Source: an uncultured Gammaproteobacteria bacterium (GTDB lineage: Bacteria > Pseudomonadota > Gammaproteobacteria > SZUA-229). Taken from it: DNA of 15,997 nucleotides. The notes beneath the pieces are model-generated. The model did not search any database and was not told the DNA's origin. It worked only from the letters and a program-made list of their open reading frames with translations. The DNA is taken from contig CBDULQ010000066.1 of the NCBI GenBank assembly GCA_965368115.1, positions 1 to 15,997 on the forward strand, in the 5' to 3' direction. This document shows, one piece after another, positions 1 to 15,631 of this stretch (within the stretch, counting starts at the first letter, position 1; each line of letters begins with the position of its first letter). The translations under genes were made by a program, and so were the position numbers.

Positions 1-31
1 ACATTTATGTTGTTTCGCAAAGAAACCGCGC

Positions 32-101
32 GCGGATATAGCTTAGTGGAAAAGCGCTACCTTCACAGGTTGAGATGTGAGTTCGATTCTCGCTATCCGT
101 T
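32..101 (+). tRNA. tRNA-like element (Val-CAC-like), probably degenerate/pseudo-tRNA; no CCA
   Basis: Acceptor GCGGATA/TATCCGT (one G-U). D-arm GCTT-AGTGGAA-AAGC. T-arm GTGAG-TTCGATT-CTCGC. The anticodon region is one nt short: the best fold is a 5-bp stem (one mismatch) closing a 6-nt loop TTCACA, or a 4-bp ACCT/AGGT stem with a TCAC tetraloop. CAC sits at the anticodon position. Confidence 0.4.
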
Positions 102-200
102 TTGAATTTTAGCGACCAGTGTCGCTGTAGTTGTTGAACAGAGCCTGTAACAGAGTGCTGTGTGCGCTCAATGGTCTTATATCGACAACGTCAATATTGC

Positions 201-275
201 TGGGGCATGCGCCATCGGTAGGCGGGAGTACTGTTAATGCTCTGTATGAAAGTTCGAGTCTTTCTGCCCCAGCCA
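201..275 (+). tRNA. tRNA-Asn(GTT), CCA encoded
   Basis: Acceptor TGGGGCA/TGCCCCA (U1-A72, as in E. coli tRNA-Asn). D-arm CGCC-ATCGGTA-GGCG. Anticodon arm GAGTA-CTGTTAA-TGCTC (anticodon GTT). Variable loop TGTAT. T-arm GAAAG-TTCGAGT-CTTTC. Discriminator G, then CCA. Confidence 0.7.
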
Positions 276-292
276 GATAAATTTGGTATTTC

Positions 293-368
293 GCTTCGGT
301 AGCTCAGCCGGTAGAGCGCCTGTCTGAAGAGCAGGGCGTCGGTGGATCGAAACCACCCCGAAGCGCCA
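293..368 (+). tRNA. tRNA-Phe(GAA), CCA encoded
   Basis: Acceptor GCTTCGG/CCGAAGC. D-arm GCTC-AGCCGGTA-GAGC. Anticodon arm CCTGT-CTGAAGA-GCAGG (anticodon GAA). Variable loop GCGTC. T-arm GGTGG-ATCGAAA-CCACC; position 54 is A, which is unusual. Discriminator G (E. coli Phe has A73), then CCA. Confidence 0.7.
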
Positions 369-369
369 T

Positions 370-444
370 GACGAGAAGGTTGCTGGTAACCAGGCGGGTA
401 TTACAAACCTGTTGGCGCAAGTTCGATTCTTGCTCTCGTCACCA
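370..444 (+). tRNA. tRNA-Val(TAC), CCA encoded, non-canonical D-arm
   Basis: Starts 1 nt after the CCA of tRNA-Phe. Acceptor GACGAGA/TCTCGTC. Anticodon arm CGGGT-ATTACAA-ACCTG (one G-U; anticodon TAC). Variable loop TTGGC. T-arm GCAAG-TTCGATT-CTTGC is perfect. Discriminator A, then CCA. The D region GTTGCTGGTAACCAGG folds only as CTGG/CCAG around a 3-nt loop, which is aberrant. Confidence 0.6.
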
Positions 445-492
445 GATATCGGGCCGATGATGCTGGTTTAAAAATCGTCGGTCCTTGTACAG

Positions 493-568
493 GGCCCTGT
501 AACTCAATGGGTAGAGTGGCTGATTGTCTATCAGCAGGTTGCGTGTTCGAGTCACGTCAGGGCCGCCA
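493..568 (+). tRNA. tRNA-Asp(GTC), CCA encoded
   Basis: Acceptor GGCCCTG/CAGGGCC. D-arm ACTC-AATGGGTA-GAGT. Anticodon arm GCTGA-TTGTCTA-TCAGC (anticodon GTC). Variable loop AGGTT. T-arm GCGTG-TTCGAGT-CACGT. Discriminator G, then CCA. The listed ORF 507..716 is spurious and overlaps this gene. Confidence 0.75.
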
Positions 569-599
569 GTTAAGAATCGGAAGCTTGATTCCGAGATAT

Positions 600-673
600 G
601 GTGAAGTTAGTTCAATGGTAGAACTCCTGATTGTGGCTCAGGCGATGCGAGTTCGATTCTCGCCTTCACCCCA
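600..673 (+). tRNA. tRNA-His(GTG); no encoded G-1; 3' end C-CA, so the CCA call is ambiguous
   Basis: Acceptor GGTGAAG/CTTCACC is perfect. D-stem GTTC/GAAC with loop AATGGTA. Anticodon arm CCTGA-TTGTGGC-TCAGG (anticodon GTG). Variable loop CGAT. T-arm GCGAG-TTCGATT-CTCGC. Discriminator C, as expected for His. The upstream base is T, so the bacterial G-1:C73 extra pair is not encoded. Three nt (TTA) separate the acceptor and D stems. Confidence 0.6.
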
Positions 674-701
674 GGTTTGTGTGTATTCACAGAGAAAATA
701 T

Positions 702-784
702 GGGTCGTTCGTCTAATGGTATGACACCGGACTTTTACTCCGGCGCGAATCGCATTGAGAGTTCGAGTCTCTCACGACCCACCA
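702..784 (+). tRNA. tRNA-Lys(TTT)-like with a 13-nt type-II-like variable arm, CCA encoded
   Basis: Acceptor GGGTCGT/ACGACCC is perfect and identical to E. coli tRNA-Lys. D-stem GTC/GAC. Anticodon arm CCGGA-CTTTTAC-TCCGG (anticodon TTT). The variable region CGCGAATCGCATT folds as a GCG-AAT-CGC mini-hairpin. T-arm GAGAG-TTCGAGT-CTCTC. Discriminator A, then CCA. Total length 83 nt. Confidence 0.55.
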
Positions 785-897
785 CGAATTGAAGAACTTG
801 CCAGAAGTTTAGCGGTGAGGGTTCTGTATGCCCTGCCTGCGCACTGACGCTATCCATTGCAAAGTGTGTACAAAACACTGGAAAAGCTTCAATACCA

Positions 898-975
898 GCG
901 AAGCTAGCTCAATTGGGTAGAGCAACTGACTTTTAATCAGTGTGTTACAGGTTCGAATCCTGTTCTTCTCAACCA
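898..975 (+). tRNA. tRNA-Lys(TTT)-like, body very similar to E. coli tRNA-Lys but acceptor stem imperfect; possibly a pseudo or variant tRNA
   Basis: D-arm GCTC-AATTGGGTA-GAGC. Anticodon arm ACTGA-CTTTTAA-TCAGT (anticodon TTT). Variable loop GTGTT. T-arm ACAGG-TTCGAAT-CCTGT. Acceptor 5' GCGAAGC pairs with 3' TCTTCTC at only 5 of 7 positions. The 3' end reads A-ACCA, one extra nt before CCA. Confidence 0.45.
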
Positions 976-1398
976 ACCTGTTACGTTGGCTAAGGTAAAG
1001 GCGAAAGCCTGCGGTTCGACTCCGCTTAAATGAGTGTCGAAAGACACAGACGACGACCAGGCCTCCGGTGAAGCCGGCGCCGCTTTGCGGCTCGGCTGCT
1101 CACAACGTGTATAGGGCCTGTGCAGTCGGCTTGGATGTGCAGTGCAGTTTGTCTGTAACGCCGTGTTGAAAAGGAAATTTTTCAAGGATGAAATCTCGGC
1201 TACACGGGCAGATGAATATGTACGTCACCCCGGCTGTCCGCCCCTTATGCGTGAGGTCGTCGCGTTTATATTCAAAGATTCTCAATTAAACCTGAAGGAG
1301 GTCTCATGAAGATTCGTTAACAGCCGGTAGTAGCATCCCTGTGAATGGGGACCGGCCAGGAAATGCTGCGTACTATTTATTAATCAAGGAGAATAATC

Positions 1399-2544
1399 AT
1401 GTTTGGAATTAAGCGTATTGTCATTGCACAACACGAACGCGCACTTTACCTGAAGAACCGTACTATCGAAAAGGTTCTGGAGCCGGGCGTGTACTGGATG
1501 TTTGACCTGTTCGGTCGGATCGATATTCAGGTTTATGATATTAATCAGCCGGAATTTAATCACCCTAACCAGGAAATGATTGTCAAAGAATACAGGGATC
1601 TTTGCGATCATCATTTTCAGGTCGCAGAACTCGGTGATCACGAGGTTGGTTACCTTTATGTCGATAACAAGCTGACTAACGTACTGTTTCCGGCTACTCG
1701 TCATCTGTACTGGAAAGGTCCTTACGATATTCGAATCGAAACTCAGAATATCGAGCGGGACTACCAGGTCGAGGCGGATAAAATGGCGCTTCTGGCCTAC
1801 AAGCGGCTAGCTACCCTGGGCAACCATGTTGTCGAAGCCGTGCTGCCGGTCGAAGTTGCTGCACAGCACATCGGTCTTCTGTTTATCGATGGTGAACTGG
1901 TGAAAACCCTGAAACCGGGTCTTTATGTGTTCTGGAAGTTCAATCGAAAGGTTGCTGTGGAATATGTTGATACCCGGCTGCAGGCGATGGAGGTTTCCGG
2001 TCAGGAGATCCTGACTCGAGACAAGGTAAGCCTGCGGGTTAATCTATCAGCATCTTACAAGATCGTCGATCCGGTAACTGCACGAACTGCACTCGTCAAT
2101 ATGACTGAGTACCTGTACCGGGAAGTACAGTTCGCAATTCGTGAGGCCATTGGCACTCGTCTACTGGACGAACTACTGGCTAATAAAGGTGAGCTGGATC
2201 AGGTGATTTTCGATTCAGTTAAAAGCAAAGCGAAAGACAACGGTATTCATGTACAAGGCGTGGGAATCAAGGACATTATCCTGCCGGGTGACATGAAGGA
2301 CATTATGAACCAGGTGGTTCAAGCCGAAAAAGCTGCGCAAGCTAATGTCATTAAACGTCGCGAAGAAACCGCTGCGACTCGTTCACTGCTGAACACTGCA
2401 CGACTGATGGATGAAAATCCGACTCTGCTGCGACTGAAAGAGCTGGAGGCTCTTGAAAAAGTCACCGAAAAAATCGATAAGCTGACTGTGTTCGGCGGAC
2501 TCGATGGTGTGCTTAAGGAAGTCGTAAAAGTCAGCATGAACTAG
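1399..2544 (+). CDS. SPFH/band-7 (slipin/prohibitin-like) domain protein, 381 aa, no N-terminal TM segment
   Basis: Strong SD AAGGAG 7 nt before the ATG. A typical SPFH core is present (…QEILTRDKVSLRVNLSASYKIVDP…VQFAIREAIG…). The C-terminal half is a coiled coil (QAEKAAQANVIKRREETAATRSLL…). The N-terminal ~190 aa contains a partial internal repeat. GC content is lower than in the rest of the window. Confidence 0.85.
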   Translation: MFGIKRIVIAQHERALYLKNRTIEKVLEPGVYWMFDLFGRIDIQVYDINQPEFNHPNQEMIVKEYRDLCDHHFQVAELGDHEVGYLYVDNKLTNVLFPATRHLYWKGPYDIRIETQNIERDYQVEADKMALLAYKRLATLGNHVVEAVLPVEVAAQHIGLLFIDGELVKTLKPGLYVFWKFNRKVAVEYVDTRLQAMEVSGQEILTRDKVSLRVNLSASYKIVDPVTARTALVNMTEYLYREVQFAIREAIGTRLLDELLANKGELDQVIFDSVKSKAKDNGIHVQGVGIKDIILPGDMKDIMNQVVQAEKAAQANVIKRREETAATRSLLNTARLMDENPTLLRLKELEALEKVTEKIDKLTVFGGLDGVLKEVVKVSMN

Positions 2545-2706
2545 CGTTTTGGGTTCAGACTGAGACTCCGGGCCAGGGAAGGTTCGGGGGCTGTCGGCTT
2601 GATTTAAAAGGACCAGAGCAGGAGGTGATGCGCTGGACTTAGTAACAGGCAAATATCTTTTCCATTGAGTGGGCCTGCCAAATGGGCGGGTTCATATTCA
2701 TATCAA

Positions 2707-2783
2707 ACCCACGTGGCCCAACTGGCAGAGGCGCTCGGCTTAGACCCGAGATGATGAAAGTTCGAACCTTTCCGTGGGTACCA
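2707..2783 (+). tRNA. tRNA-Leu(TAG) with a short (5-nt) variable loop, class-I-like architecture, CCA encoded
   Basis: Acceptor ACCCACG/CGTGGGT. D-stem GCC/GGC with an 11-nt loop. Anticodon arm CTCGG-CTTAGAC-CCGAG is perfect (anticodon TAG). The variable loop ATGAT is only 5 nt, whereas bacterial tRNA-Leu normally has a long arm. T-arm GAAAG-TTCGAAC-CTTTC. Discriminator A (a Leu identity element), then CCA. Confidence 0.6.
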
Positions 2784-2789
2784 GATTTT

Positions 2790-2864
2790 TCGCTGGTGGT
2801 GTAACAGGTAACACTCCGGACTTTGACTTCGGCATTGATAGTTCGAATCTATCCCGGCGAGCCA
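2790..2864 (+). tRNA. tRNA-Gln(TTG), CCA encoded
   Basis: Acceptor TCGCTGG/CCGGCGA, with U1-A72 as in E. coli tRNA-Gln. D-arm GTGT-AACAGGTA-ACAC. Anticodon arm CCGGA-CTTTGAC-TTCGG (anticodon TTG). Variable loop CATT. T-arm GATAG-TTCGAAT-CTATC. Discriminator G, then CCA. It lies 6 nt after tRNA-Leu. Confidence 0.7.
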
Positions 2865-2918
2865 ATTTCTGTATGCAATGTATATCCAGACCTTATTCAT
2901 CAACACAGGACAGGAGAG

Positions 2919-3482
2919 ATGGGATATACCATGCAACATATTCTCGCCGTCGATATCGGCGGCAGGCCTTTTGACTGGCTGCACTGGCAACACGTAGTAC
3001 AGCTATATGCACGGGATGAGATCGCCTGGGAAACCGGCACCGCGCTGTACCGTATTCGAGGCGGTCTCAATCGTCGAACCCGACAATGTAGTGAAATAGA
3101 GCTGACGTCCGTTGTATCGGTTCGAGGTGCAAATACCGCTGCTGTCTATCAGGGGCAGCCGTCGCTAAGTAATCGCACGCTATTTGCCAGGGACGATTAC
3201 CTGTGTATGTATTGTGGTCGTCGGTTGTCCATGTCGCAGCTAACTCGGGATCATATTATGCCGAGGGCGCAGGGTGGTCGTGATGACTGGGAAAATGTTA
3301 CTACCGCATGTAAGTCCTGTAATAATCGCAAGGGTAACAGGACCCCGGAGCAGGCAGGTATGCCGTTGCTGGCGGTACCTTATGTGCCGAATCATGCGGA
3401 ATTTCTGATGCTCGCCAATCGCCGTATTCTGGCGGATCAGATGGTATTCCTGCGTCAATATGTACCCAGGACTCGCCGTTAA
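2919..3482 (+). CDS. HNH endonuclease (small HNH nuclease, ~188 aa)
   Basis: The HNH motif reads CMYCGRR…DHIMPRAQGG…WENVTTACKSCNNRKGN (C-x2-C … H … N … C-x2-C … N). SD AGGAGA precedes the ATG at 2919. The listed ORF start at 2823 would overlap tRNA-Gln and is unlikely. A rho-independent terminator follows. Confidence 0.8.
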   Translation: MGYTMQHILAVDIGGRPFDWLHWQHVVQLYARDEIAWETGTALYRIRGGLNRRTRQCSEIELTSVVSVRGANTAAVYQGQPSLSNRTLFARDDYLCMYCGRRLSMSQLTRDHIMPRAQGGRDDWENVTTACKSCNNRKGNRTPEQAGMPLLAVPYVPNHAEFLMLANRRILADQMVFLRQYVPRTRR

Positions 3483-3485
3483 ATA

Positions 3486-3524
3486 GAACAAACCCGTTTC
3501 GTCCGGAAGCGGGTTTGTTCTTTT
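3486..3524 (+). terminator. rho-independent terminator after the HNH gene
   Basis: The stem GAACAAACCCG … CGGGTTTGTTC is perfect over 11 bp and is followed by TTTT. Confidence 0.75.
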
Positions 3525-3626
3525 CAGTCCTGTACCAATACCGCTCACTGTGCTTGCTCTCGATGTTTACACTGCCGGACTAAGGGCTCCGTCATCAGGC
3601 TTAACTGAGGAGGCTGGCAATAAGGG

Positions 3627-3642
3627 TATAACATGTTATAAT
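3627..3642 (+). promoter_or_regulatory. perfect 14-bp palindrome TATAACATGTTATA overlapping a TATAAT -10 box; candidate operator plus promoter of the TSUP gene
   Basis: The palindrome spans 3627-3640 and TATAAT spans 3637-3642. A weak -35-like TGGCAA lies 16 nt upstream. The ACATGT core is shared with the motifs at 10779-10797 and 5303-5311. Confidence 0.5.
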
Positions 3643-3695
3643 AAGTTAATTTTTTGCGGTATGAATATGGTAAATATTCTTTAAAACAATAAGTT

Positions 3696-4442
3696 ATGGA
3701 ATATATCTCAAGTATTATTGATACTCGGTGGGCACTTGCAGCGGTTGCCGTTCTGCTCGCCGGGGTGGTGCGTGGCTTTTCCGGTTTTGGTGCCGGGCTG
3801 ATTCTGGTGCCGACCCTGGGCGTGCTCTACGGCCCGGTCGAAGCGGTGGTATCGGTGATGTTACTGGAGCTGATTCCCACTGCTCAGATGTTGCCGCGCG
3901 CACTCAAACACTGTCACTGGCCCAGTGCTGCGCCCATGTTATTGATGGCGACGCTGACCATTCCGTTGGGTTCGTTTGTGCTCGTCGTGATGGATGAACA
4001 TCTGGTACGCGGCCTCATTGCCGTGGTGGTGTTGCTGGGTTGTGCCTGGCTGGCCAGTGGCAGGCGTCTCGTGTCTGCTACGGTATCGACCCGATCCGGT
4101 CCACTGCTGACCGGAGGACTCAGCGGTCTGTTGAGCGGGGCGGTTGGACTGGGCGGTTTGCCGGTGGTGATGTATTACCTGTCCGGTACGCATCGAGCCC
4201 AGGCGACGCGTTCGAGCATCATTGTGATATTGCTGGCCAGTGTGCTGGTGTCTTTGATCACGTTTCTCCTGCATGGCATCGTCAGTGAACAGATTGTCAT
4301 GCGTTGTCTCACCCTGGCGCCGTTATTGCTCTTTGCAACCTGGCTGGGTGGTTGTATATTCGGCAGAGTATCGGAGCAGTTGTTCCGTCGGCTGTTACTC
4401 ATTCTGTTGAGTATGGTCGGTCTGGTCACGCTGGCGATCTGA
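3696..4442 (+). CDS. TSUP family permease (TauE/SafE-like sulfite/organosulfonate exporter family, DUF81)
   Basis: The 248-aa polytopic membrane protein has the duplicated Gly-rich TSUP pattern: (AGVVRGFSGFGAGLILVP…) and (LLTGGLSGLLSGAVGLGGLPVVMYYL…). Confidence 0.8.
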   Translation: MEYISSIIDTRWALAAVAVLLAGVVRGFSGFGAGLILVPTLGVLYGPVEAVVSVMLLELIPTAQMLPRALKHCHWPSAAPMLLMATLTIPLGSFVLVVMDEHLVRGLIAVVVLLGCAWLASGRRLVSATVSTRSGPLLTGGLSGLLSGAVGLGGLPVVMYYLSGTHRAQATRSSIIVILLASVLVSLITFLLHGIVSEQIVMRCLTLAPLLLFATWLGGCIFGRVSEQLFRRLLLILLSMVGLVTLAI

Positions 4443-4489
4443 TGTAAATCCTGTGTTCGAACCATTCTATGCAGAAGGGGAATAACCAT

Positions 4490-4927
4490 ATGGAACTGCG
4501 CGCGTTGATTCAACAGGCCGAAGATATTCGTCAGCAACGTCACGCGCTGGCGCAACAGGATTTACAGCTCAGGCAACAACTGGAACACATCGAAGCGGAG
4601 ATTAAAAAGCTCGCCGATACCGATGAGCTGAATTACGAGAACCTCTCGGAACAGGAATTTCAGTTGTTGCTGTCGGAACTGGGCGACGATAAGCGCATCA
4701 AGATCGAAGTGGTGTACGCCGAGCCGAAACGCCAGATCATCAACGAAGTTCAGGTGCCCGACGGTGCGACCATCGAAGACGGTATCGTGCTTTCCGGTAT
4801 TCTCGACGAGCTACCGCATATTGAATTAACCGAAACCCGGGTGGGTATCTTCGGTGCCATCAAGCCCCTGGCGGAAGTTTTGCGTGACGGCGACCGCGTC
4901 GAAATCTATCGACCGGTTAACAGTTAG
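4490..4927 (+). CDS. rnfH: RnfH-family (UPF0125, RatB/YfjF-like) beta-grasp protein with a ~65-aa coiled-coil N-terminal extension
   Basis: The C-terminal ~85 aa (KIEVVYAEPKRQIINEVQVPDGATIEDGIVLSGILDEL…VGIFGAIKPLAEVLRDGDRVEIYRPV) closely resemble E. coli RatB/RnfH (VEVAYALPEKQY…EGATVEEAI…VGIY…DGDRVEIYRPL). SD GAAGGGG lies 9 nt before the ATG at 4490. An in-frame ATG at 4469 is an alternative start. Confidence 0.7.
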   Translation: MELRALIQQAEDIRQQRHALAQQDLQLRQQLEHIEAEIKKLADTDELNYENLSEQEFQLLLSELGDDKRIKIEVVYAEPKRQIINEVQVPDGATIEDGIVLSGILDELPHIELTETRVGIFGAIKPLAEVLRDGDRVEIYRPVNS

Positions 4928-5365
4928 TCTTTTAATCAGTTTTTTCTTTCTGCTGCAGCGCGGGCAAGCTCGCGCCTGTTCATCTTTTTCTATTCCTTCC
5001 TGTCTGCTTCGCGACGGAAAAAACTGTTTTGATATTAATTCCTTAGCGATGTTTTTCTGCATTCCTGCCTAGCACGACCAGTACTTGTATTAAGACTTTC
5101 AGACAGTGACGCACCAGTATGCGTTATTGAAGTGCCCCGTATCCTTGCATCGCACCATTATCGTTCGTGCTGCCTGTTAATTCAGACTTTCGTGATATTT
5201 CTCAATGCAAGCCGTTTTTCGTTTAAAAACATTAACCTGTCTCTTGATGCGGGTAATTGTTTATGCCTTGGCACAGGCTGTGCAACAGTATTACCAGTCA
5301 ATATGACATGTTGTAACAAGTTAACTCATCAAAACGGGCTGACATAAAAACGCGAGGAAATGGTT

Positions 5366-6739
5366 ATGAAGAAACGAATTGTCGCATTGCTAACACTGAT
5401 GGTGTCCTGCTCGGGGGTATCCGCCGAGACCATCCGTATTGCAATCGGTCATCAGAGTAAGTGCACCGACACCTACACCGCAGGCATTATTGTTAAAGAA
5501 CTCAAATTGATCGACAAGTACCTCCCCAGAACCGGTAAATACAAAGACGCTGAATACGAATACAACTGGAAAGACTACGCGTCCGGTTCGCCGATCACCA
5601 ATCAGATGATGGCCAACAAGCTCGACTTCGGTGTTATGGGTGATTACCCGCTGATCGTCAATGGCGCCAAGTTCCAGGAAACCAATAGCCTCGAGTCACT
5701 TTACATCGCCGGTACCGGTTACAACGTGAAAGGTTCAGGTAACGCCATCGTGGTGCCGGTCAAATCCGATGTATTCGAACTGGAAGACCTGAAAGGCAAA
5801 ACCATTTCCGTGCCGGTTGGTAGTGCTGCCTGGGGTATGACCCTGAAAGCGCTTCAGGACAAAGGCATTCGTGAACATGTCGAAATCAAGAACCAGAGTC
5901 CTTCGGTGGGTGCCGCCAATATTGCGCAGGGTAAGATCGACGCGCACGGTGACTTCTGTCCCTGGTCCGAAATCATGGAATTCCGCGGTACCGGCCGCAA
6001 GATCTTCGACGGTAGTGAAGCCGGCGTACCTTACCTGCACGGTGTAGTCGTGCGTAAGGACTATGCGGAGAAATATCCCGAAGTGGTCATCGCTTTCATG
6101 AAAGCGATTGTTGAAGCCGGTGACTGGGTACGCAAGGACCCGGTGATGGCTGCAACCAAACTGGAAGAGTGGACCGGTGTAGAGCGCGAAGTACAGTACC
6201 TGTATTTCAGCAAGGGTGGCGCATTGACGCTTGACCCGACTATCAAAGATGCCTGGGTCGATGCACTGAAATTCGATCACACGGTGCTGGTGAAAGAAAA
6301 AGCCATTCCGCCGCTGGATTTCAATGCCTGGATTACCGACAAGTACATCCGCCAGGCCTATAGCGAAATGAAACGTGATTACGAAGCGGATCTGACCTAC
6401 ACCCGGGACCCCAAGGCAGAAAACATGAAGCTGCCGCCGGCTGAAGTCTGGCATGCGGACAAGGGTATTATCAGCTACGACAGTGTTGCCGCCATGTTGG
6501 ATGATGCCGCCAAATTCAAGAAAGACGGCAAGCTGCGTGCATCCTATGTTTTCGATAACACCACCGGCCTGAAGATCTTCGCCAAGATTGCCTTCTACGT
6601 GAAAGATAAAGAGGGTAAATATGTGGCCTTCATGCGCAAGCCGGATGCCAGCGAGTTCGCTACGACATCCGGCGGCCAGCTGGTCGACAAAATCGAAACA
6701 TCAACAGGTGAATTCCTGCAACTGAGTTCCCTCAACTGA
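5366..6739 (+). CDS. ABC transporter periplasmic substrate-binding protein, NitT/TauT (NMT1/SsuA/TauA/NrtA-like) family, signal peptide
   Basis: The signal peptide MKKRIVALLTLMVSCSGVSA-E is present. The ~458-aa length recalls the NrtA/CmpA-sized members. The gene precedes a cognate permease and a NitT/TauT-type ATPase. A GAGG motif lies 9 nt before the ATG at 5366; the in-frame ATG at 5360 is too close to the SD. Confidence 0.8.
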   Translation: MKKRIVALLTLMVSCSGVSAETIRIAIGHQSKCTDTYTAGIIVKELKLIDKYLPRTGKYKDAEYEYNWKDYASGSPITNQMMANKLDFGVMGDYPLIVNGAKFQETNSLESLYIAGTGYNVKGSGNAIVVPVKSDVFELEDLKGKTISVPVGSAAWGMTLKALQDKGIREHVEIKNQSPSVGAANIAQGKIDAHGDFCPWSEIMEFRGTGRKIFDGSEAGVPYLHGVVVRKDYAEKYPEVVIAFMKAIVEAGDWVRKDPVMAATKLEEWTGVEREVQYLYFSKGGALTLDPTIKDAWVDALKFDHTVLVKEKAIPPLDFNAWITDKYIRQAYSEMKRDYEADLTYTRDPKAENMKLPPAEVWHADKGIISYDSVAAMLDDAAKFKKDGKLRASYVFDNTTGLKIFAKIAFYVKDKEGKYVAFMRKPDASEFATTSGGQLVDKIETSTGEFLQLSSLN

Positions 6740-6759
6740 TTGATGAGCTTCATTGGGTT

Positions 6760-6780
6760 CCGGCGGTTAGCCGCCGCCGG
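6760..6780 (+). other. GC-rich intercistronic hairpin between the SBP and permease genes
   Basis: CCGGCGG-ttagccg-CCGCCGG forms a 7-bp G/C stem with no clear U-tract. A role as an attenuator or mRNA-stability element setting SBP:permease stoichiometry is conceivable. Confidence 0.4.
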
Positions 6781-6812
6781 TTCTCCAATGATTTTTCCAG
6801 CCGGGTAGAGCA

Positions 6813-7775
6813 ATGACATTGGAAAGCGCAAAACTAATTAAACAGGATGACCTGGATACGCCGGAGACGAATCCGGACGCCGCCAGCGACACGCAGGCGA
6901 CGGCACAGGTCAAGCCGATCAAGCAAGCGGATGCTGATTCCGCCACCGCGGAAACAGCCGTTATGAATACAAGACCTGCGGCCAGCACCGGTCGGCCCGC
7001 AAAAAAAGTGCCCTGGGATCGCTATGCGATTCGCGTTGCGGCGGTCATCGTGGCCGTTTTGCTCTGGCAGCTTGCATCGTCCACAGGGTTTAACTTTGTG
7101 ATCAATTTCGAGAACATTCCATCGCCACAAAAAGTGGGTGCACAGTTCGTTCACCTGCTGGGCACGGAAGAGTTCTATACCCACATCGTTGTCAGCCTTA
7201 AACGCATACTGATCGCTTTCACCATGGCCTCGGTGCTGGGTGTTATCGCCGGTATATTCATGGGGCGCTCACGTCTGGTCTATGACGTGCTCATGCCCTA
7301 TATCGAAATTTTACGACCGATCCCGGCCGTGGCCTGGATTCCGCTGTCCATTCTGATGTTGCCGACGGAAGAATCGAGCATCATCTACATCACTTTCCTC
7401 GGCGCTTTGTTCCCAGTGATTCTGAATACCATCCATGGCGTCGAGCAAACACCGGAAACGCTGGTAAGGGCGGCGCGTTCACTGGGAGCGAATAATCGCG
7501 CCATCATGTGGCATGTGATTCTGCCCGGCGCCTTGCCCAGCATCATGGCGGGTCTGGCGATTGGCATGGGTGTGTCCTGGTTCTCGCTGCTGGCCGGCGA
7601 GATCATCAGCGGTCAGTACGGTATCGGTTACTTCACCTGGAACTCCTACACACTCGTGGAATACCCGAACATCATTATCGGCATGCTGACAATCGGTGGC
7701 CTGGGTACCTTGTCTACCTGGCTTGTAAAGCAGGCGTCCAAGCCGGCACTTCGCTGGCAGAGTTCGGAGCATTGA
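6813..7775 (+). CDS. ABC transporter permease (BPD_transp_1; SsuC/TauC/NrtB-like)
   Basis: The conserved permease loop LGANNRAIMWHVILPGALPSIMAGLAIGMGVSWFSLLAGE is present, with six or more hydrophobic helices. A ~90-aa low-complexity hydrophilic N-terminus may mean the real start is later, for example the ATG near 6962. Confidence 0.8.
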   Translation: MTLESAKLIKQDDLDTPETNPDAASDTQATAQVKPIKQADADSATAETAVMNTRPAASTGRPAKKVPWDRYAIRVAAVIVAVLLWQLASSTGFNFVINFENIPSPQKVGAQFVHLLGTEEFYTHIVVSLKRILIAFTMASVLGVIAGIFMGRSRLVYDVLMPYIEILRPIPAVAWIPLSILMLPTEESSIIYITFLGALFPVILNTIHGVEQTPETLVRAARSLGANNRAIMWHVILPGALPSIMAGLAIGMGVSWFSLLAGEIISGQYGIGYFTWNSYTLVEYPNIIIGMLTIGGLGTLSTWLVKQASKPALRWQSSEH

Positions 7776-7776
7776 T

Positions 7777-8430
7777 ATGTACGCAAGAATACTGATCAAC
7801 GAAATTCGCCAGCACTGGATCATGTTTCTCGGCATCAGTATCGGCTTTGTGGTGATGTACTACGGCAGCCTGTTGCTACTCACCATGCTGCGTTTCGGCG
7901 AGATTCCGAACTATGTGGAGTTCTATGACATTTTCAAAATCTATGCCGGCATTTTCGAAGGTACGCCGTCGCTCAGCGATGCACTGATGATCCTGAAAGA
8001 CGAAGCCTGGATCGAAACCGGTTATAAAAATCCGGATTACTACGGCGTTGCGACCTGGAGCTACATGCTGATTCCACCGAAGATGTTGCTGGTGTTATTG
8101 CTTGGTATGTTGCTCGGCGTGTTCAGTATCCTGGTGACTTCGAAACGCAAGGCTTGTGCACGAGGTGTGGATAAAAAAATGGTCGCTGCTGCAGGTGTGG
8201 GTTCTTCACTGGTCTGCCTGACCAGTGCGACCCTGACCTGGGTGGTGTGTTGTGCGACGCCGTCCTGGGTGGTGGCCCTGGCCATGCTCGGTATGAACGC
8301 CTCACTGGCCCTGTTCCTGGAACCGCTGGGGCAGGTGATGATGTTGCTGGGGCTGGGCATTATGTTTGCCATCATCATTGTGCAACTGCGCCAGATGGCT
8401 GCCTATAAAACACACGAGCATCATTCCTGA
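7777..8430 (+). CDS. uncharacterised polytopic membrane protein (217 aa) inserted between the permease and ATPase genes
   Basis: The start is translationally coupled: permease TGA at 7773-7775, ATG at 7777. Several hydrophobic segments and a Cys cluster (…SSLVCLTSATLTWVVCCATPSWVV…) are present. I recognise no family. Confidence 0.55.
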   Translation: MYARILINEIRQHWIMFLGISIGFVVMYYGSLLLLTMLRFGEIPNYVEFYDIFKIYAGIFEGTPSLSDALMILKDEAWIETGYKNPDYYGVATWSYMLIPPKMLLVLLLGMLLGVFSILVTSKRKACARGVDKKMVAAAGVGSSLVCLTSATLTWVVCCATPSWVVALAMLGMNASLALFLEPLGQVMMLLGLGIMFAIIIVQLRQMAAYKTHEHHS

Positions 8431-8462
8431 AATTAGACTGATAACAGACGAGAGATAGACGC

Positions 8463-9329
8463 GTGCTGAATGTAAAAGAAGACATCGATCATCAGGCCGA
8501 CATGCCGCCGCTGGGTGCGCCCCGTATGCAACAGCATAAACCCTCCCAGGGACGTATCGTCATCGACGACGTTTCGGTGAGGTTTCCCGGCGGTGCGGTT
8601 GCGGTCGAGGGCGCCTGCCTGACCGTGGAGCCAGGTGAATTCATCTGCCTGCTGGGTCCTTCCGGTTGCGGAAAATCGACCCTGATGAATACCGTTGCCG
8701 GTTTCGTTCAACCCACTAGCGGTCGGGTTAGTGTCGACGACAGGGTCATCGAAAAACCCGGCTTCGATCGCGGCATGGTATTCCAGCATCATTCGTTGTT
8801 TCCCTGGAAAACCGTTCGCGACAATATTGCGTTCGGACCGCTGATGGCGAACAAGGGCAAAAACGAAGCGATTAGTATCGCGCGAACCATGCTTGGTATG
8901 GTCGGGCTGAGTGCGTATGAAAATCGTTACCCGGGTGTGCTGTCCGGTGGAATGAAACAGCGTGTGGGTATTGCACGTGCACTGGCCAACTATCCCAATG
9001 TATTGCTGATGGACGAACCCTTCGGTGCACTGGATGCGCAGACTCGCACCATGATGCAGGAGAATCTGCTGCAGATCTGGGGCGAATTCGGTATCAGTGT
9101 GATTTTTGTAACCCACGACATCGATGAAGCCGTATTTCTTGCCGATCGTGTGGTGGTGATGAGTGCTAGCCCCGGCCGGCTGATTGCGGATATCAAGGTC
9201 GATCTGCCACGACCGCGTGAACCGGACATGGTGACGTCGGATGTATATATCCAGACCAAGCGCCAGTGTCTGGACCTGATTCGAGAAGAATCCTTACGCG
9301 CCTTCGAACAACAGGGTGACAAGGGTTAA
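8463..9329 (+). CDS. ABC transporter ATP-binding protein, NitT/TauT family (SsuB/TauB/NrtD-like)
   Basis: Walker A GPSGCGKST, signature LSGGMKQRVGIARAL, Walker B LLMDEPFGALD and H-loop VTHDIDEA are all present. The start is uncertain: GTG at 8463 has a GAGAGA SD, and in-frame ATGs follow at about 8500 and 8527. Confidence 0.85.
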   Translation: MLNVKEDIDHQADMPPLGAPRMQQHKPSQGRIVIDDVSVRFPGGAVAVEGACLTVEPGEFICLLGPSGCGKSTLMNTVAGFVQPTSGRVSVDDRVIEKPGFDRGMVFQHHSLFPWKTVRDNIAFGPLMANKGKNEAISIARTMLGMVGLSAYENRYPGVLSGGMKQRVGIARALANYPNVLLMDEPFGALDAQTRTMMQENLLQIWGEFGISVIFVTHDIDEAVFLADRVVVMSASPGRLIADIKVDLPRPREPDMVTSDVYIQTKRQCLDLIREESLRAFEQQGDKG

Positions 9330-9338
9330 ACGAAAAGT

Positions 9339-9989
9339 ATGAACATGAACGTATTGTATGACCACACAATCGGCCGGAGTGCGGCGATCCTTGCGATCGT
9401 CGCCGTGCTGATCCTCGGTTGCAGTACGCAAACTGAAAGCGACATGCCGGAATCGATTCGCGATGTTGCTCTGGAAACACCGATCGCTCTGGCAGATGTG
9501 AAACTGCTGGATGATCAACAACAGCCGGTGACGCTGGAAAATTTTACCGGTCACTGGACCCTGGTGACCTTCGGTTACACCCATTGCCCGGATATCTGTC
9601 CGGCGACTCTGTCGCAGATCGGCATGCTGTACAAGCTGGTGCAACAGGATGGTGTAAAGGATCTACCCAGGGTGTATTTCGTCAGTGTCGATCCGCAGCG
9701 CGATGCTCTGGAATACCTGGGTGAATACACCCGTTATTTCAACACAGCGTTCATCGGTATCAGTGGTGACCAGCAGGCGTTGAAAAATTTCGAAGACCAG
9801 TTTGGTGTGTTTCATCGATATGAGAAACAGTCGGGCTCGGAAAATTATCTGGTGGATCACAGTGCGGATATTTTCCTCGTCGATCCACAGGCGCGTATCG
9901 TGGCGAGCTTTCAGCCGCCGATGAATTTACGTCAGGTTGCCGATCTGTATGCGGGGTTTGTTGATTATTATGCCGGGAAACAGAGTTGA
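9339..9989 (+). CDS. Sco1/SenC family copper chaperone / thiol-disulfide oxidoreductase, lipoprotein
   Basis: Lipobox LILGC-S. The Sco CxxxC motif reads HCPDICP, downstream His, thioredoxin-like fold signature (…YFVSVDPQRD…). Confidence 0.85.
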   Translation: MNMNVLYDHTIGRSAAILAIVAVLILGCSTQTESDMPESIRDVALETPIALADVKLLDDQQQPVTLENFTGHWTLVTFGYTHCPDICPATLSQIGMLYKLVQQDGVKDLPRVYFVSVDPQRDALEYLGEYTRYFNTAFIGISGDQQALKNFEDQFGVFHRYEKQSGSENYLVDHSADIFLVDPQARIVASFQPPMNLRQVADLYAGFVDYYAGKQS

Positions 9990-10734
9990 TGAACTTGTTG
10001 ATCGCGATACTTTGTCAGCGACACGCCACTGGTTGTGGCGAGGTGGTCTGCTGTGGGGTGCATTCATCATGATGAACAGTATCGAACTGCGTGCCGACAC
10101 CATCGACAACAGCGGCCAGGAGCCTTATGAGCAATGCGGTTACTGCCACGAATACGACGGTAATACGGTGATGGCAGATTTTCCGCGCCTGGCGGGACAG
10201 TGGCCGGCGTATCTGCGAAAACAGTTACATGATTTCAGGGCGAAGCGTCGCATCAGTTCGCATATGAACCCGACCGCAGAACTGCTCAGTGACGAAGACA
10301 TCGAGTCGGTTGTGGCTTATTTCAACAGCCAGCTGCCGCGTGCAAAACAGTTACCGGCGCAGAACGAAAACGATGCGCAGCATGCCCGGCGCCTGTTTAC
10401 CCATGGTGATACACAACGCGGTTTGCCGGCCTGTATCGAATGCCATGGCGACCAGGGTCAGGGCAGGGCGCAACCGCTGGCACCGAACATTGCCGGTCAA
10501 CAACCGGATTATCTGCAACGCCAGCTGAACAACTTCCGCGCCGGCGAACGTAGTAACGACCCAAACGCTCGCATGCGTCAGGTTGCGGCGCTGTTGACGG
10601 ATCACGAGATCGTCATTCTGAAGGATTTTCTGGCGCGTATGCAGCCGGTGAAAGCGCCTGCGCAAACCGTATCCGGCGCGGCTGAATCGAATCTTAATTT
10701 AACCCGAAACACAACGGCGCAGACAAAACATTAA
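9937..10734 (+). CDS. di-haem cytochrome c4-family protein
   Basis: Two CxxCH haem-binding sites (CGYCHE, CIECHG), each followed by the c4-type motif (LAGQ…YL.KQL.DFR / IAGQQPDYLQRQLNNFRAGER). The ORF overlaps the sco gene by 53 nt in another frame. The true start may be an internal ATG at 9970 or a TTG near 10009, either of which would yield a signal peptide (…GGLLWGAFIMMNSIELRA-DT). Confidence 0.75.
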   Translation: MPICMRGLLIIMPGNRVDELVDRDTLSATRHWLWRGGLLWGAFIMMNSIELRADTIDNSGQEPYEQCGYCHEYDGNTVMADFPRLAGQWPAYLRKQLHDFRAKRRISSHMNPTAELLSDEDIESVVAYFNSQLPRAKQLPAQNENDAQHARRLFTHGDTQRGLPACIECHGDQGQGRAQPLAPNIAGQQPDYLQRQLNNFRAGERSNDPNARMRQVAALLTDHEIVILKDFLARMQPVKAPAQTVSGAAESNLNLTRNTTAQTKH

Positions 10735-10774
10735 GTCTGCATAAACAATAACTTGTACTGATCAGGTGAAGCCC

Positions 10775-10797
10775 TATAATGACATGTCATAACATGT
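10775..10797 (+). promoter_or_regulatory. gntR promoter -10 (TATAAT) overlapping the palindrome ATGACATGTCAT and a second ACATGT repeat; candidate autoregulatory operator
   Basis: TATAAT spans 10775-10780 with a -35-like TTGTAC 16 nt upstream. A perfect 12-bp palindrome spans 10779-10790, followed by AACATGT at 10791-10797. GntR/HutC operators are typically palindromes built around GT…AC. Confidence 0.5.
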
Positions 10798-10814
10798 AGA
10801 TACAGGTACCGATT

Positions 10815-11567
10815 ATGAGCACAGATCGTAAACAGTTTTCACCTCTCAGTAATGGTTCGTTACAGCCCCTGTATATCCAGATCAAGGAGGCGATCAAACA
10901 GCGCATCCTTGATGGGGATTACGCCGCCCACGAACGCCTGCCGTCGGAATCGGAGCTGATGAAAGTGTTCGGTGTCAGCCGCATCACCGTACGCCAGGCG
11001 TTAAGGGATCTGCATAGCGACGGCATGGTGTTCAGCGTGCAGGGAAAGGGCACTTTCGTATCCAAACCGAAAGCAGTGCAGGACGTGCAACGGCTGCAGG
11101 GTTTCGGTGAGGCGATGGCGCCGAAAGGTTATGAAACATCGGCGCGAGTGATCAGCGTAAGTGAAACCCGGGCCAGCCAGGAAGTGGCGGAAGCGCTGGA
11201 TATCACGCGCAACGTCAAGGTCGTCGAACTGAAACGGGTGCGTTTTCTGAATCGCGAACCCATTTCCATCGACCACAGTTTCTTCCCGCTGGACATCGGT
11301 CAGAAACTGCAGGCCCGCGACCTGACACAGGATGTCTTTCCGCTACTGGAAAACGAATTCGGCGTTCTGCTGAGTCATGCGGATTTGCAGATCGAAGCGA
11401 CCGCGGCCAGTGAAGAACAGGCGAGTTTTCTCAACATCGACGTCAATCGGCCGGTGTTGAAGATCAAACGCCTGGTGTTCAACCAGCAGGGTAAGCCGGT
11501 GGACTTCGAATATCTGTTTTATCGCGGTGATGCTTTCCAGTATCACCTGCGCGTAGACAGAAAATAG
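10815..11567 (+). CDS. GntR-family transcriptional regulator, HutC/FarR subfamily (HTH_GntR + UTRA domain)
   Basis: The N-terminus (…LPSESELMKVFGVSRITVRQALRDLHSDGMVFSVQGKGTFV) is a classic GntR winged-helix domain. The C-terminal ~150 aa are UTRA-like. Confidence 0.85.
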   Translation: MSTDRKQFSPLSNGSLQPLYIQIKEAIKQRILDGDYAAHERLPSESELMKVFGVSRITVRQALRDLHSDGMVFSVQGKGTFVSKPKAVQDVQRLQGFGEAMAPKGYETSARVISVSETRASQEVAEALDITRNVKVVELKRVRFLNREPISIDHSFFPLDIGQKLQARDLTQDVFPLLENEFGVLLSHADLQIEATAASEEQASFLNIDVNRPVLKIKRLVFNQQGKPVDFEYLFYRGDAFQYHLRVDRK

Positions 11568-11713
11568 CGACACTCAGGGCTCGATGTGTCGTTGCAGCGT
11601 AATCGTTCGTCAGAATTACAGTACGCACGATTGCATAACAGGGATGTGAATATTGTTCTGTCCGAGGATTCGGGCAGAGACATCAGGATCACGACTCAAA
11701 ATAGGTGAAAACA

Positions 11714-13459: not shown

Positions 13460-13469
13460 GGAGCCTGTT

Positions 13470-13703
13470 ATGCCATTTGCACTCAATCAAACCAATGTTC
13501 CGGTTGTGGTCAACGCGGAAGCCTGTATCGCCGACAAAGGCTGTAATGCCTGTGTCGATGTATGTCCACTGGACGTGCTGGAGATCAACAAGGAAAAAGG
13601 CGTTGCCTTTATGAAATACGATGAATGCTGGTACTGCCTGCCCTGCGAGACAGACTGTCCCACCAACGCCATTCACGTCAACATTCCTTATTTACTGCGC
13701 TAG
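13470..13703 (+). CDS. small 2x[4Fe-4S] ferredoxin resembling the N-terminal domain of APS reductase beta subunit (AprB-like), 77 aa
   Basis: SD TAAGGAG lies 6 nt before the ATG, immediately after the stop of the flavoprotein. The Cys clusters are CIADKGCNACVDVCP and CWYCLPCETDCP. The pattern …LEINKEKGVAFMKYDECWYCLPC… parallels AprB (…KEKMKAYNREPDMCWECYSC…). The AprB C-terminal tail is absent. Confidence 0.65.
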   Translation: MPFALNQTNVPVVVNAEACIADKGCNACVDVCPLDVLEINKEKGVAFMKYDECWYCLPCETDCPTNAIHVNIPYLLR

Positions 13704-13719
13704 GCCGGGAGATTTTTAG

Positions 13720-14682: not shown

Positions 14683-14694
14683 GGGGGAGATGTT

Positions 14695-15021
14695 ATGGCT
14701 TTTGTAGTAGGCGAGGCCTGTATCCGTTGCAAGTACACCGATTGCGTGGATGTGTGTCCGGTGGATGACTGCTTCCGCGAAGGTGAGAACTTTCTGGTCA
14801 TCGACCCGGTGACCTGTATCGACTGTGGACTGTGTGTGCCGGAGTGTCCCGCCGACGCGATTTTCGCCGAAGACGATGTGCCGGCGGAGCAGCAGGAATA
14901 CATTGCATTGAACGCGGAGCTGGCGCAACACTGGCCGCCGATCAATTCACCCAAACCGCCGTTGGCGGATGCGGATGACTGGGTGGATACCGGCGACAAA
15001 TTGCAGTACCTGGTGCGCTAA
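14695..15021 (+). CDS. fdxA: 7Fe ferredoxin, Azotobacter FdxA type ([3Fe-4S][4Fe-4S])
   Basis: [62 protein letters not shown] is the canonical FdxA sequence pattern. SD GGGGGAGA is present. Confidence 0.85.
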
Positions 15022-15048
15022 TCGACGAAACTGAAACGGGAAACCGGT

Positions 15049-15624: not shown

Positions 15625-15631
15625 GATCGAT

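Follow-up and report, generated by a model that had tools for sequence, protein, structure and literature searches.

L-arrays and tRNA array units are dense, same-strand sets of supernumerary, diverged transfer RNA (tRNA) genes (Santamaria-Gomez et al. 2021, PMC8421152; Tran et al. 2015, PMC4758250; here and below, the accessible sections of both papers). L-arrays are described as spreading horizontally, as carrying redundant tRNAs and as linked to an HNH endonuclease (PMC8421152). The Anabaena L-array is silent until translation is impaired and is co-regulated with rtcB; 23 of its 26 tRNAs are charged in vivo, and array tRNAs are found in polysomes (PMC8421152). Array units are also under discussion as putative anti-defence systems (PMC12803027, accessible section). 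We analysed a 15,997-nucleotide stretch of DNA, called the window hereafter, from an uncultured Gammaproteobacteria bacterium (assembly GCA_965368115.1, contig CBDULQ010000066.1, positions 1 to 15,997, forward strand). Its left end holds a tRNA-gene island that appears to resemble the L-array type described in cyanobacteria. The island encodes, at 702-784, a tRNA-Lys(UUU) with a long, class II-like variable arm.

The window shares with L-arrays and array units the dense, same-strand arrangement of supernumerary, diverged tRNA genes. Its family further shares with L-arrays a patchy distribution, varied insertion sites, an HNH gene and, in relatives, RtcB. The window differs by having only 10 genes and by the SPFH and RlaP partners of its family, of which the accessible sections of PMC8421152 and PMC4758250 make no mention; nor do these sections mention a long-arm tRNA-Lys or a short-arm tRNA-Leu. 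Array units are defined by at least 20 genes and at least 2 genes per kb. The window has the density but not the number (10 genes in 2.83 kb), and the fullest relative array has 18 tRNA genes. The qualitative marks of an L-array are found: the genes are supernumerary, horizontally spread, HNH-linked and, in relatives, linked to RNA repair.

The nearest published descriptions of a tRNA like that at 702-784 are the allo-tRNAs and "irregular tRNA polycistrons" (Mukai et al. 2017, PMC5389517). Allo-tRNAs combine a long variable arm with anticodons other than those of Leu, Ser and Tyr, and some of them lie in phage tRNA clusters and in "polycistrons of irregular tRNAs" (PMC5389517). They have an 8/4 or 9/3 branch, a long D stem capped by a tetraloop, and charging with Ser or Ala, whereas the window gene has a 7/5 branch (7-bp acceptor stem, 5-bp T stem), a Lys acceptor stem and A73. 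The 7/5 branch rules out an allo-tRNA identity. Nematode nev-tRNAs (Hamashima et al. 2012, PMC3333845) also join class II architecture to the anticodon of a class I amino acid. Unlike the window gene, with its Lys acceptor stem and non-Leu D arm, they are eukaryotic, derived from tRNA-Leu and charged with leucine. Bacterial tRNA-Tyr, the canonical short-arm class II tRNA, matches 702-784 (in its E. coli form) in the variable region (13 nt; stem of 3 bp, loop of 3 nt), in the 3-bp D stem and in A73 and U35; its anticodon is GUA instead of UUU, and the acceptor stem of the window gene is that of Lys. The short-arm tRNA-Leu of the island (2707-2783) has a counterpart in the type-I tRNA-Leu of Streptomyces coelicolor (PMC6614811), which also lacks the long arm and is chargeable by one leucyl-tRNA synthetase (LeuRS). 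The latter is an actinomycete housekeeping gene, whereas the former is an array gene beside a long-arm tRNA-Lys. No description of a long-arm tRNA-Lys was found in open-access papers and bioRxiv, where absence is no proof. The class II-like tRNA-Lys of mobile arrays is apparently undescribed, though annotated in some phage genomes.

tRNA-Lys(UUU) is one of the tRNAs attacked most often by defence nucleases; the preliminary description of this stretch had named it as a nuclease substrate. It is targeted by AriB of PARIS (PMC11464382, PMC12409363), by bacterial Schlafen (PMC13056530) and, more weakly, by P2 OLD (PMC12445682). Phage tRNAs are able to rescue infection after cleavage of host tRNAs (PMC11464382, PMC12409363, PMC10264068, PMC11555353, PMC12445682). 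The tRNA-Lys(UUU) by which phage T5 neutralises PARIS (PMC11464382, PMC12409363), with which we group phage tRNAs with anticodon-loop changes (PMC10264068), is like the window gene an extra tRNA-Lys(UUU) of a mobile element, with host-like decoding and a different body. Its resistance comes from substitutions at positions 39 and 41 of a type-I tRNA, whereas the window gene has an added arm and lies in a chromosomal island.

A tRNA-Lys(UUU) with a class II-like core

702-784, forward strand: class II-like tRNA-Lys(UUU), 83 nt (ARAGORN, Rfam, minimum free energy fold, covariation)
734-736, forward strand: anticodon TTT, within the loop CTTTTAC, which has C38 where A38 is usual (sequence reading, ARAGORN)
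744-756, forward strand: variable region CGCGAATCGCATT, 13 nt, with the hairpin GCG-AAT-CGC at 745-753 (ARAGORN, fold, alignment)

The gene at 702-784 is parsed as GGGTCGT-TC-GTCT-AATGGTA-TGAC-A-CCGGA-CTTTTAC-TCCGG-CGCGAATCGCATT-GAGAG-TTCGAGT-CTCTC-ACGACCC-A-CCA. ARAGORN calls it a tRNA-Lys(ttt) of 83 nt, and the Rfam tRNA model RF00005 matches 702-781 over model positions 1-71 of 71 with 59.9 bits (gathering score 29, E 4.6e-11). The acceptor stem GGGTCGT/ACGACCC has 7 bp and the T stem 5 bp, position 73 is A, and CCA is encoded. The anticodon arm CCGGA-CTTTTAC-TCCGG has the 5-7-5 layout. The D stem has 3 bp with a U13.U22 mismatch, and a tertiary pair A15:U48 is present. The unconstrained minimum free energy (MFE) fold is this same five-armed cloverleaf (-29.3 kcal/mol, z -2.58). 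In the RF00005 covariance alignment, the extra bases form an insert in the variable region. An intron or an alternative fold for these bases is ruled out, as the covariance-model alignment, ARAGORN and the free MFE fold all give a variable-arm hairpin.

The acceptor stem, A73 and CCA are identical to those of a RefSeq E. coli tRNA-Lys. The determinants of lysyl-tRNA synthetase (LysRS) include U35, U36 and A73, and by this rule U34-U35-U36 and A73 are all present in the gene (PMC9976931). The gene has the marks of a class II tRNA in that its variable region reaches at least 10 nt (here 13) and forms a stem-loop (3 bp), and in that a 3-bp D stem and a non-Watson-Crick 13:22 occur together with a kept 15:48 pair. 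Its anticodon UUU places it outside the class II isotypes (Leu, Ser, bacterial Tyr and Sec). Searched by blastn against all E. coli genomes, the gene gave no match even at E 10, and similarity thus yields no isotype.

The preliminary description had seen a Lys acceptor stem, A73 and UUU in a canonical 5-7-5 arm, and the sequence, ARAGORN and the E. coli comparison bear this out. Its 13-nt variable region with a mini-hairpin GCG-AAT-CGC is recovered by the covariance alignment and the free MFE fold. It had also named a covariance-model search as a check, which gave the full-length 59.9-bit match with the extra bases in the variable region, and a better fold, an intron or another isotype as grounds for rejection; the covariance model, ARAGORN and the MFE fold yield none of these.

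Relatives of the gene and selection on the arm

In 185,579 species genomes we looked for a tRNA-Lys(UUU) that combines an E. coli-type acceptor stem with a long gap between the anticodon loop and the T loop. Only one of four matches is real, and it lies in an array. This locus (L003) is a groundwater Gammaproteobacteria metagenome-assembled genome (MAG) with an 18-tRNA array, which includes an 86-nt long-arm tRNA-Lys and has an RtcB gene embedded between the tRNAs. Two matches (L002 and L004) were rejected for runs of N inside the gene, and the last (L005) for a duplication-like insert in the anticodon arm with no variable arm. A similar scan of metagenome contigs gave 9 matches, 9 of 9 inside tRNA arrays. 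Five represent the lineage of the window (group A), and the other four loci carry one identical 87-nt gene of a second lineage (group B), whose arrays have three consecutive Lys genes and an 88-nt long-arm tRNA-Glu.

Thirteen long-arm Lys sequences, one short-loop relative and E. coli tRNA-Lys were aligned (15 sequences), and covariation was counted over the 24 pairs of the five-armed cloverleaf plus the 15:48 tertiary pair. Pairing holds in 99.1% of cells. Changes on both sides occur at 17 of the 24 pairs, which none of 500 shuffles reached, and pairing falls to 31-49% when partner columns are slid by 1-3. Every helix has compensatory changes across the relatives. Pairing in the variable stem is 94.9%, with GC, GU, AU, UA and CG occurring at the inner pair and CG, AU and GC at the middle one. 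Pair 15:48 is A:U in 11 sequences and G:C in 4, without exception. The D stem keeps 3 pairs, and 13:22 is not a Watson-Crick pair (U.U in the lineage of the window, G.A in group B), which is the class II arrangement. UUU, U33, A37, A73 and the encoded CCA are invariant in 13 of 13 long-arm relatives. The nearest relative (L139) differs from 702-784 by two substitutions, one of which turns a G-C pair of the variable stem into G.U.

To obtain a sample unbiased by the arm, arrays were gathered through their embedded SPFH protein and not through the long gap. The syntenic Lys gene is long-armed in five of the six lineages sampled (window/L139, L141, L142, L145 and L006). Compared with the short-loop gene of L143, the window arm is a 9-nt insertion; across relatives the insertion measures 8-11 nt and follows the first variable nucleotide. 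In L145 the variable stem has only 2 bp.

The extra bases could in principle mark a dead gene or a prediction artefact, and several neighbours in the window array are indeed defective. To this reading we give next to no credence: the cloverleaf is perfect, the scores are high, every helix shows compensatory changes, and one of the two substitutions in L139 is the G-C to G.U change of the variable stem. The covariation among relatives therefore excludes the pseudogene that the preliminary description had allowed for, and makes the arm part of a folded, selected RNA. By itself covariation is not proof that the arm is beneficial, as opposed to merely being kept harmless. We are confident that 702-784 encodes a functional, structured tRNA in a mobile array.

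Some further irregular tRNA genes were seen in these scans. The group B tRNA-Glu(UUC) (88 nt, L009 3243-3330) has a 5-bp variable stem. The L003 array encodes a tRNA-Asn(GUU) of 83 nt (5622-5704, minus strand) with the variable hairpin GUC-GCAA-GAC. Between its tRNA-His and long-arm Lys genes (~4400-4530, minus strand), a sequence that starts like a tRNA (CCCATTGTCTAGTGGCTAACAC) leads into a long inverted repeat (GTCATTCCCGAATGC ... GCATTCGGGAATGAC); a palindromic insert may have interrupted a tRNA gene here. Two Marinobacter species (L005 6591-6675; L002 111-198) have a chromosomal tRNA-Lys(UUU) with a duplication-like insert of ~9 nt in the anticodon arm, GGCTTTTAACCATTTTAACCAATTGG. The L002 copy has NN at the insert site, and the insert could be an assembly artefact or genuine.

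The mobile tRNA-array island

The island (~30-3482, 3.5 kb, at the left end of the window) comprises 10 same-strand tRNA or tRNA-like genes, an SPFH gene and an HNH gene. Besides the long-arm tRNA-Lys it contains the following features.

32-101, forward strand: tRNA-like gene, first of the array, with a 6-nt anticodon loop and no CCA (ARAGORN "tRNA-???", Rfam 54.8 bits)
201-275, forward strand: tRNA-Asn(GUU) with a 6-bp anticodon stem (ARAGORN, Rfam permissive)
293-368, forward strand: tRNA-Phe(GAA) (ARAGORN, Rfam)
370-444, forward strand: tRNA with an unusual D arm, anticodon UAC (Val) (ARAGORN, Rfam 36.1 bits, weak)
493-568, forward strand: tRNA-Asp(GUC) (ARAGORN, Rfam)
600-672, forward strand: tRNA-His(GUG) (ARAGORN, Rfam)
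898-975, forward strand: tRNA-like gene with anticodon UUU and the tail A-ACCA, not A-CCA (ARAGORN tRNA-Lys(ttt) at 898-971, Rfam 59.9 bits)
1000-1025, forward strand: remnant like a 3' half-tRNA, hairpin GGCGAAAGCC and T-arm GCGGTTCGACTCCGC (sequence; conserved in L006, ~7600-7640)
1399-2544, forward strand: SPFH/Band-7 (slipin-like) protein, within the array (Pfam PF01145, E 1.4e-29)
2707-2783, forward strand: tRNA-Leu(UAG), 77 nt, without a long variable arm, type-I-like (ARAGORN, Rfam)
2790-2864, forward strand: tRNA-Gln(UUG) (ARAGORN, Rfam)
2919-3482, forward strand: HNH endonuclease, at the right end of the island (Pfam HNH/HNH_5; gene call in L001; same position in related arrays)

ARAGORN finds 10 same-strand tRNA genes, 8 in 32-975 and 2 in 2707-2864. 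The Rfam tRNA model supports 10 of 10, nine at the gathering score and the Asn gene with 53.4 bits in a more permissive search. Related arrays have SPFH copies 72-96% identical at the same position and share the module order array - (RtcB) - SPFH - tRNA-Leu/Gln - HNH - (RlaP). The window array and all its relatives end in an HNH gene. RtcB and/or RlaP (the latter PF10127, a nucleotidyltransferase associated with RNA repair) are found in L003, L006, L008, L141, L143 and L145; RtcB is absent from the window. The RtcB/SPFH/HNH/RlaP module lies at 8029-11428 in L006, 3677-7061 in L141, 3883-9232 in L143 and 3964-8185 in L145. The module is flanked by different chromosomal genes at each locus, which supports horizontal mobility. 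More distant SPFH homologues (~65% identity) are ordinary chromosomal genes without arrays.

Beyond ~3500 the window reads as ordinary bacterial chromosome, with genes for TauE, RnfH, an ABC transporter, SCO1, cytochrome c, a GntR regulator, an AprA-like flavoprotein and RnfA. Among named SPFH homologues, those nearest (62-66% identity) belong to Candidatus Thiodiazotropha, Sedimenticola and unclassified Gammaproteobacteria MAGs. From these and from the gene content, we infer that the host is a sulfur-oxidising gammaproteobacterium. The island sequence is also present on JGI metagenome contigs, and a 96%-identical version occupies the same chromosomal context on a 72.7-kb contig (L139). Its GC content (49%) is only slightly below that of the flank (53-55%). 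A scan for promoters and terminators gave nothing above chance. Megablast of window positions 1-3000 against cultured phages gave no match, and distant blastn only ordinary tRNA similarities; blastn of the L003 array against plasmids and phages gave RtcB matches only. PADLOC gave no defence-system match for the SPFH, RtcB and RlaP proteins. It matched the HNH protein to PtuB (E 1.9e-9), the nuclease of Septu/Retron-Eco7, which cuts tRNA-Tyr; the match covers the HNH motif only, probably reflects generic HNH similarity and was not used as evidence.

Long-arm tRNAs in viral tRNA clusters

A first scan of viral sequences with the E. coli-type acceptor pattern gave 0 matches. IMG/VR viral contigs were also searched with a pattern independent of the acceptor stem (GACTTTTAATC, a long gap, GTTCGANTC); this viral collection may include some misclassified cellular fragments. 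Among the 120 long-gap matches listed, 118 hold a tRNA-Lys(UUU) of at least 80 nt according to ARAGORN, nearly all in phage tRNA clusters. With a length-neutral gap, the first 120 viral loci listed comprise 7 long-arm and 113 normal genes; roughly 6% of the viral tRNA-Lys(UUU) genes matching the search pattern carry the arm. The cultured Ruegeria phage vB_RpoS-V10 and Caulobacter phage CcrColossus have 88-nt genes annotated as tRNA-Lys (CUU) with GAAA-capped variable hairpins, and the class is thus already present in GenBank annotation. The preliminary description had held that a hairpin arm is restricted to Leu, Ser, Tyr and Sec. This holds for housekeeping tRNA sets but not for the tRNA clusters of phages and mobile elements, as the viral loci and cultured phages attest.

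Viral, metagenome and genome loci and the window together gave 113 unique long-arm Lys sequences. Their variable regions measure 8-21 nt, and 88 of them form a hairpin of at least 3 bp (shuffles: mean 32, maximum 41). Position 73 is A in 90 and U in 22. A subgroup of viral genes has unstructured loops of 11-12 nt. Single-linkage clustering of the 113 sequences, aimed at independent origins, chained them into one cluster. A comparison of the 37-41 motif between long- and short-loop viral Lys genes is confounded by hosts and by the search pattern and was not used.

The other tRNAs of viral loci L015-L134, which were ascertained for long-arm Lys, were tallied by isotype. The following counts give long-arm genes over all genes.

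Ile(UAU), viral loci: 10/12
Lys(CUU), viral loci: 13/73
Asn(GUU), viral loci: 11/54
Thr(UGU), viral loci: 11/49
Cys, viral loci: 8/45
Asp, viral loci: 0/54
Arg (four anticodons), viral loci: 0/80
Thr(GGU), viral loci: 0/21

In these Lys-ascertained loci, Asn(GUU) and Thr(UGU) together gained the arm in 21 of 97 cases, compared with 73 of 939 for other type-I tRNAs (Fisher p 5e-5). Conversely, 47 of 94 unique tRNA-Leu have a short arm; the arm is missing from 1 of 71 tRNA-Ser and 0 of 38 tRNA-Tyr.

These distributions bear on the main rival explanation, in which the arm is a tolerated ornament: a neutral 9-nt insertion in an ordinary spare tRNA-Lys, put up with by LysRS, EF-Tu and the ribosome, kept paired to spare the core and without any role in evasion. 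Covariation would then reflect selection for tRNA foldability and not a benefit of the arm. The normal loop of L143 and L144, the 2-bp stem of L145 and the unstructured loops of some viral Lys tRNAs are all consistent with this, and class II tRNAs show that the translation apparatus tolerates such arms. Against it, phages and arrays have the arm on Lys tRNAs of very different background. Its spread over isotypes is strongly non-uniform: it is present in 10/12 Ile(UAU) and in ~20% of Asn, Thr(UGU) and Lys(CUU), yet in 0/54 Asp and 0/80 Arg. Such concentration is also not expected of a neutral trait when 185,579 species genomes yield a single real match to the E. coli-type acceptor pattern, itself in an array. 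We consider a tolerated ornament unlikely, while taking it seriously.

Charging and possible role of the long-arm tRNA-Lys

We lean towards reading 702-784 as the functional Lys member of a back-up and repair tRNA array, an elongator that decodes AAA/AAG. When housekeeping tRNAs are damaged or limiting, the array would offer a second set with diverged sequences. Taken with its RtcB- and RlaP-bearing relatives, the island would represent a module that provides replacement tRNAs together with repair of damaged ones, and the repair-gene context fits a theme of tRNA damage. In this scheme a Lys tRNA would have gained a class II-style core by a 9-nt insertion after position 44, giving a variable-arm hairpin of 3-4 bp. 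The 3-bp D stem, the non-Watson-Crick 13:22 and the kept 15:48 pair would complete this core, with the LysRS determinants retained. The added arm would alter the shape shown to nucleases or toxins that target tRNA-Lys, and the copy would survive an attack on the host tRNA-Lys.

The tRNA is probably charged with lysine, because the LysRS determinants are retained and because of the make-up of the arrays. The long-arm gene is the sole tRNA-Lys in the near-complete arrays L003 and L006 and, as far as the contigs extend, in those of L141 and L145, all four of which have essentially one tRNA per amino acid. That it is the only tRNA-Lys of such arrays is the best available argument that it serves as one.

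In a different reading, the class II shape would direct the tRNA to LeuRS, tyrosyl-tRNA synthetase (TyrRS) or seryl-tRNA synthetase (SerRS), so that another amino acid is inserted at AAA/AAG. These enzymes read little or none of the anticodon. E. coli tRNA-Tyr has a variable arm with the same 1+3-3-3+3 layout as that of 702-784, which counts for this reading. The gene has A73, A15:U48 and G18G19, which in E. coli are Leu determinants, as well as A73 and U35, the main Tyr determinants (PMC9976931), and nev-tRNAs (PMC3333845) and allo-tRNAs (PMC5389517) offer precedents. We nonetheless find mischarging very unlikely. The acceptor stem is that of Lys, and the G73 needed for Ser is absent. The D loop has 7 nt and lacks 20a, compared with 11 nt in the array's own tRNA-Leu, so that Leu architecture is missing. 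Related arrays have their own Leu gene in all cases and their own Tyr gene in L141, L142 and L143, whereas the long-arm gene is their only Lys. Finally, misreading of every AAA codon would be highly toxic.

The tRNA-Leu at 2707-2783 has a 5-nt variable loop and keeps a Leu-type 3-bp D stem, an 11-nt D loop, A15:U48 and A73. Every related array keeps this short form. LeuRS of E. coli depends on the Leu-type D arm, A15:U48 and A73 and can do without the variable arm (PMC9976931).

Returning to the back-up tRNA-Lys that we favour, selection of its arm for evasion of a nuclease or toxin is a tentative proposal, and we doubt it more than we believe it. It is weakly suggested by the concentration of the arm in phages and mobile arrays, by its uneven spread over isotypes and by the enrichment of Asn(GUU) and Thr(UGU). 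AriB targets Lys(UUU), Asn(GUU) and Thr(UGU), and changing A41 to C in E. coli tRNA-Lys "substantially inhibits" it (PMC12409363). The window gene has U39 C40 C41, compared with U39 C40 A41 in E. coli tRNA-Lys. Our caution follows from the sample, which was ascertained for Lys, from the inclusion of isotypes unlinked to nucleases and from the lack of any known arm-blocked nuclease.

Several observations weigh against the functional reading or its evasion component. We know of no nuclease that a variable arm stops. LysRS, like other class II synthetases, comes to the tRNA from the variable-loop side, and the added arm could hinder lysine charging rather than stay neutral. The known means of escape are anticodon stem-loop substitutions (PMC10264068, PMC12409363, PMC12445682). 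The isotypes enriched for the arm include Ile(UAU), Cys and Trp, which have no known nuclease link, and the loci were ascertained for long-arm Lys. The closely related sister arrays L143 and L144 have a normal 5-nt variable loop at the same position, and the arm is thus not obligatory. Finally, the island of the window is a reduced, eroded derivative in which several neighbours of the gene are defective, and the gene may be on its way out here. Related arrays hold 14-18 tRNA genes, compared with 10 in the window, and the Arg(UCG) and Met genes found 3' of the long-arm Lys in relatives are deleted.

A still more speculative generalisation, which we regard as rather improbable, is that phages and mobile arrays swap tRNA class architecture as a counter-defence, a "shape camouflage". 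The arm would be added to the most attacked type-I tRNAs (Lys UUU/CUU, Thr UGU, Asn GUU and Ile UAU) and removed from tRNA-Leu. Synthetase identity would be kept while the fit to shape-reading nucleases and toxins is lost. The long-arm Lys and short-arm Leu of the window would be one instance.

A tRNA-shaped neighbour with a drifting anticodon

The gene at 898-975 also matches RF00005 (898-971, all 71 model positions, above the 29-bit gathering score). Its positions 8-65 are 86% identical to E. coli tRNA-Lys. Its acceptor stem has two C.U mismatches, 2:71 and 7:66, and its fold does not surpass that of shuffled sequences (z -0.23). With its flanks it is orthologous to the gene just upstream of SPFH in every related array.

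L139 5497-5570: orthologue, anticodon UUU
L142 5492-5566: orthologue, anticodon UUU
L141 3172-3244: orthologue, anticodon AUU
L006 7499-7573: orthologue, anticodon GAU
L143 5464-5538: orthologue, anticodon GAU
L145 5429-5502: orthologue, anticodon CAU

The body of these orthologues is 89% conserved. Those with a short tail have a 6-bp acceptor stem in which 2:71 covaries. The window, L139 and L141 copies have a 2-nt insertion in the 3' strand, and the window and L139 copies have extra uncompensated substitutions at position 7 or 66. From these comparisons, 898-975 is a tRNA-shaped gene with a drifting anticodon and not a second Lys lineage; in the window it is probably defective or decaying. 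The E. coli-like body and mismatched acceptor stem noted in the preliminary description are thus real, but its notion of two divergent tRNA-Lys genes does not survive the CAU, GAU, AUU and UUU anticodons of the orthologues. The body, kept despite the drift, may act as a processing signal.

This neighbour, tRNA-shaped with a seemingly irrelevant anticodon, raises the question of whether the long-arm gene acts outside translation rather than on the ribosome, serving as a sponge or decoy against a tRNA-targeting nuclease or toxin or as RNase P/Z processing punctuation of the array-SPFH transcript. A sponge role has been proposed for Anabaena L-array tRNAs (PMC8421152, accessible section), and overexpressed T5 tRNAs may partly inhibit AriB (PMC12409363). 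The 13 long-arm relatives have UUU, U33, A37, A73 and CCA without variation, which is the pattern of a decoding tRNA and unlike the drifting 898-975. A non-translational role for 702-784 accordingly has little to recommend it.

Other genes of the array show similar irregularities. The first gene (32-101) is probably defective, a pseudogene by a 1-nt deletion, judging from its orthologues in L003 and L141, which are normal tRNA-Gly(GCC). In the gene at 370-444 the acceptor and D stems are three bases apart; the orthologous anticodon is CAU (Met) in L003 and L143 but CAC in L141, a second case of an anticodon shift within the array. The remnant at 1000-1025, between the array and SPFH, resembles the 3' half of a long-arm tRNA.

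Implications

The rule that long variable arms occur only in Leu, Ser, bacterial Tyr and Sec underlies tRNA identity models, gene finders and isotype classifiers. A conserved, covarying class II-like tRNA-Lys is concentrated in mobile arrays and phage clusters, near RNA-repair genes and paired with an arm-less tRNA-Leu. The orthologues of 898-975 further indicate that the anticodon of an array tRNA gene can drift on a retained body. Should the arm change how tRNA-directed immune nucleases recognise the molecule, it would provide a novel escape route that is easy to test, distinct from the known point mutations of the anticodon stem-loop. If it has no such role, these tRNAs would still be nature's own test of the added structure that LysRS, EF-Tu and the ribosome will tolerate, and such knowledge would be useful for engineering orthogonal or tagged tRNAs.

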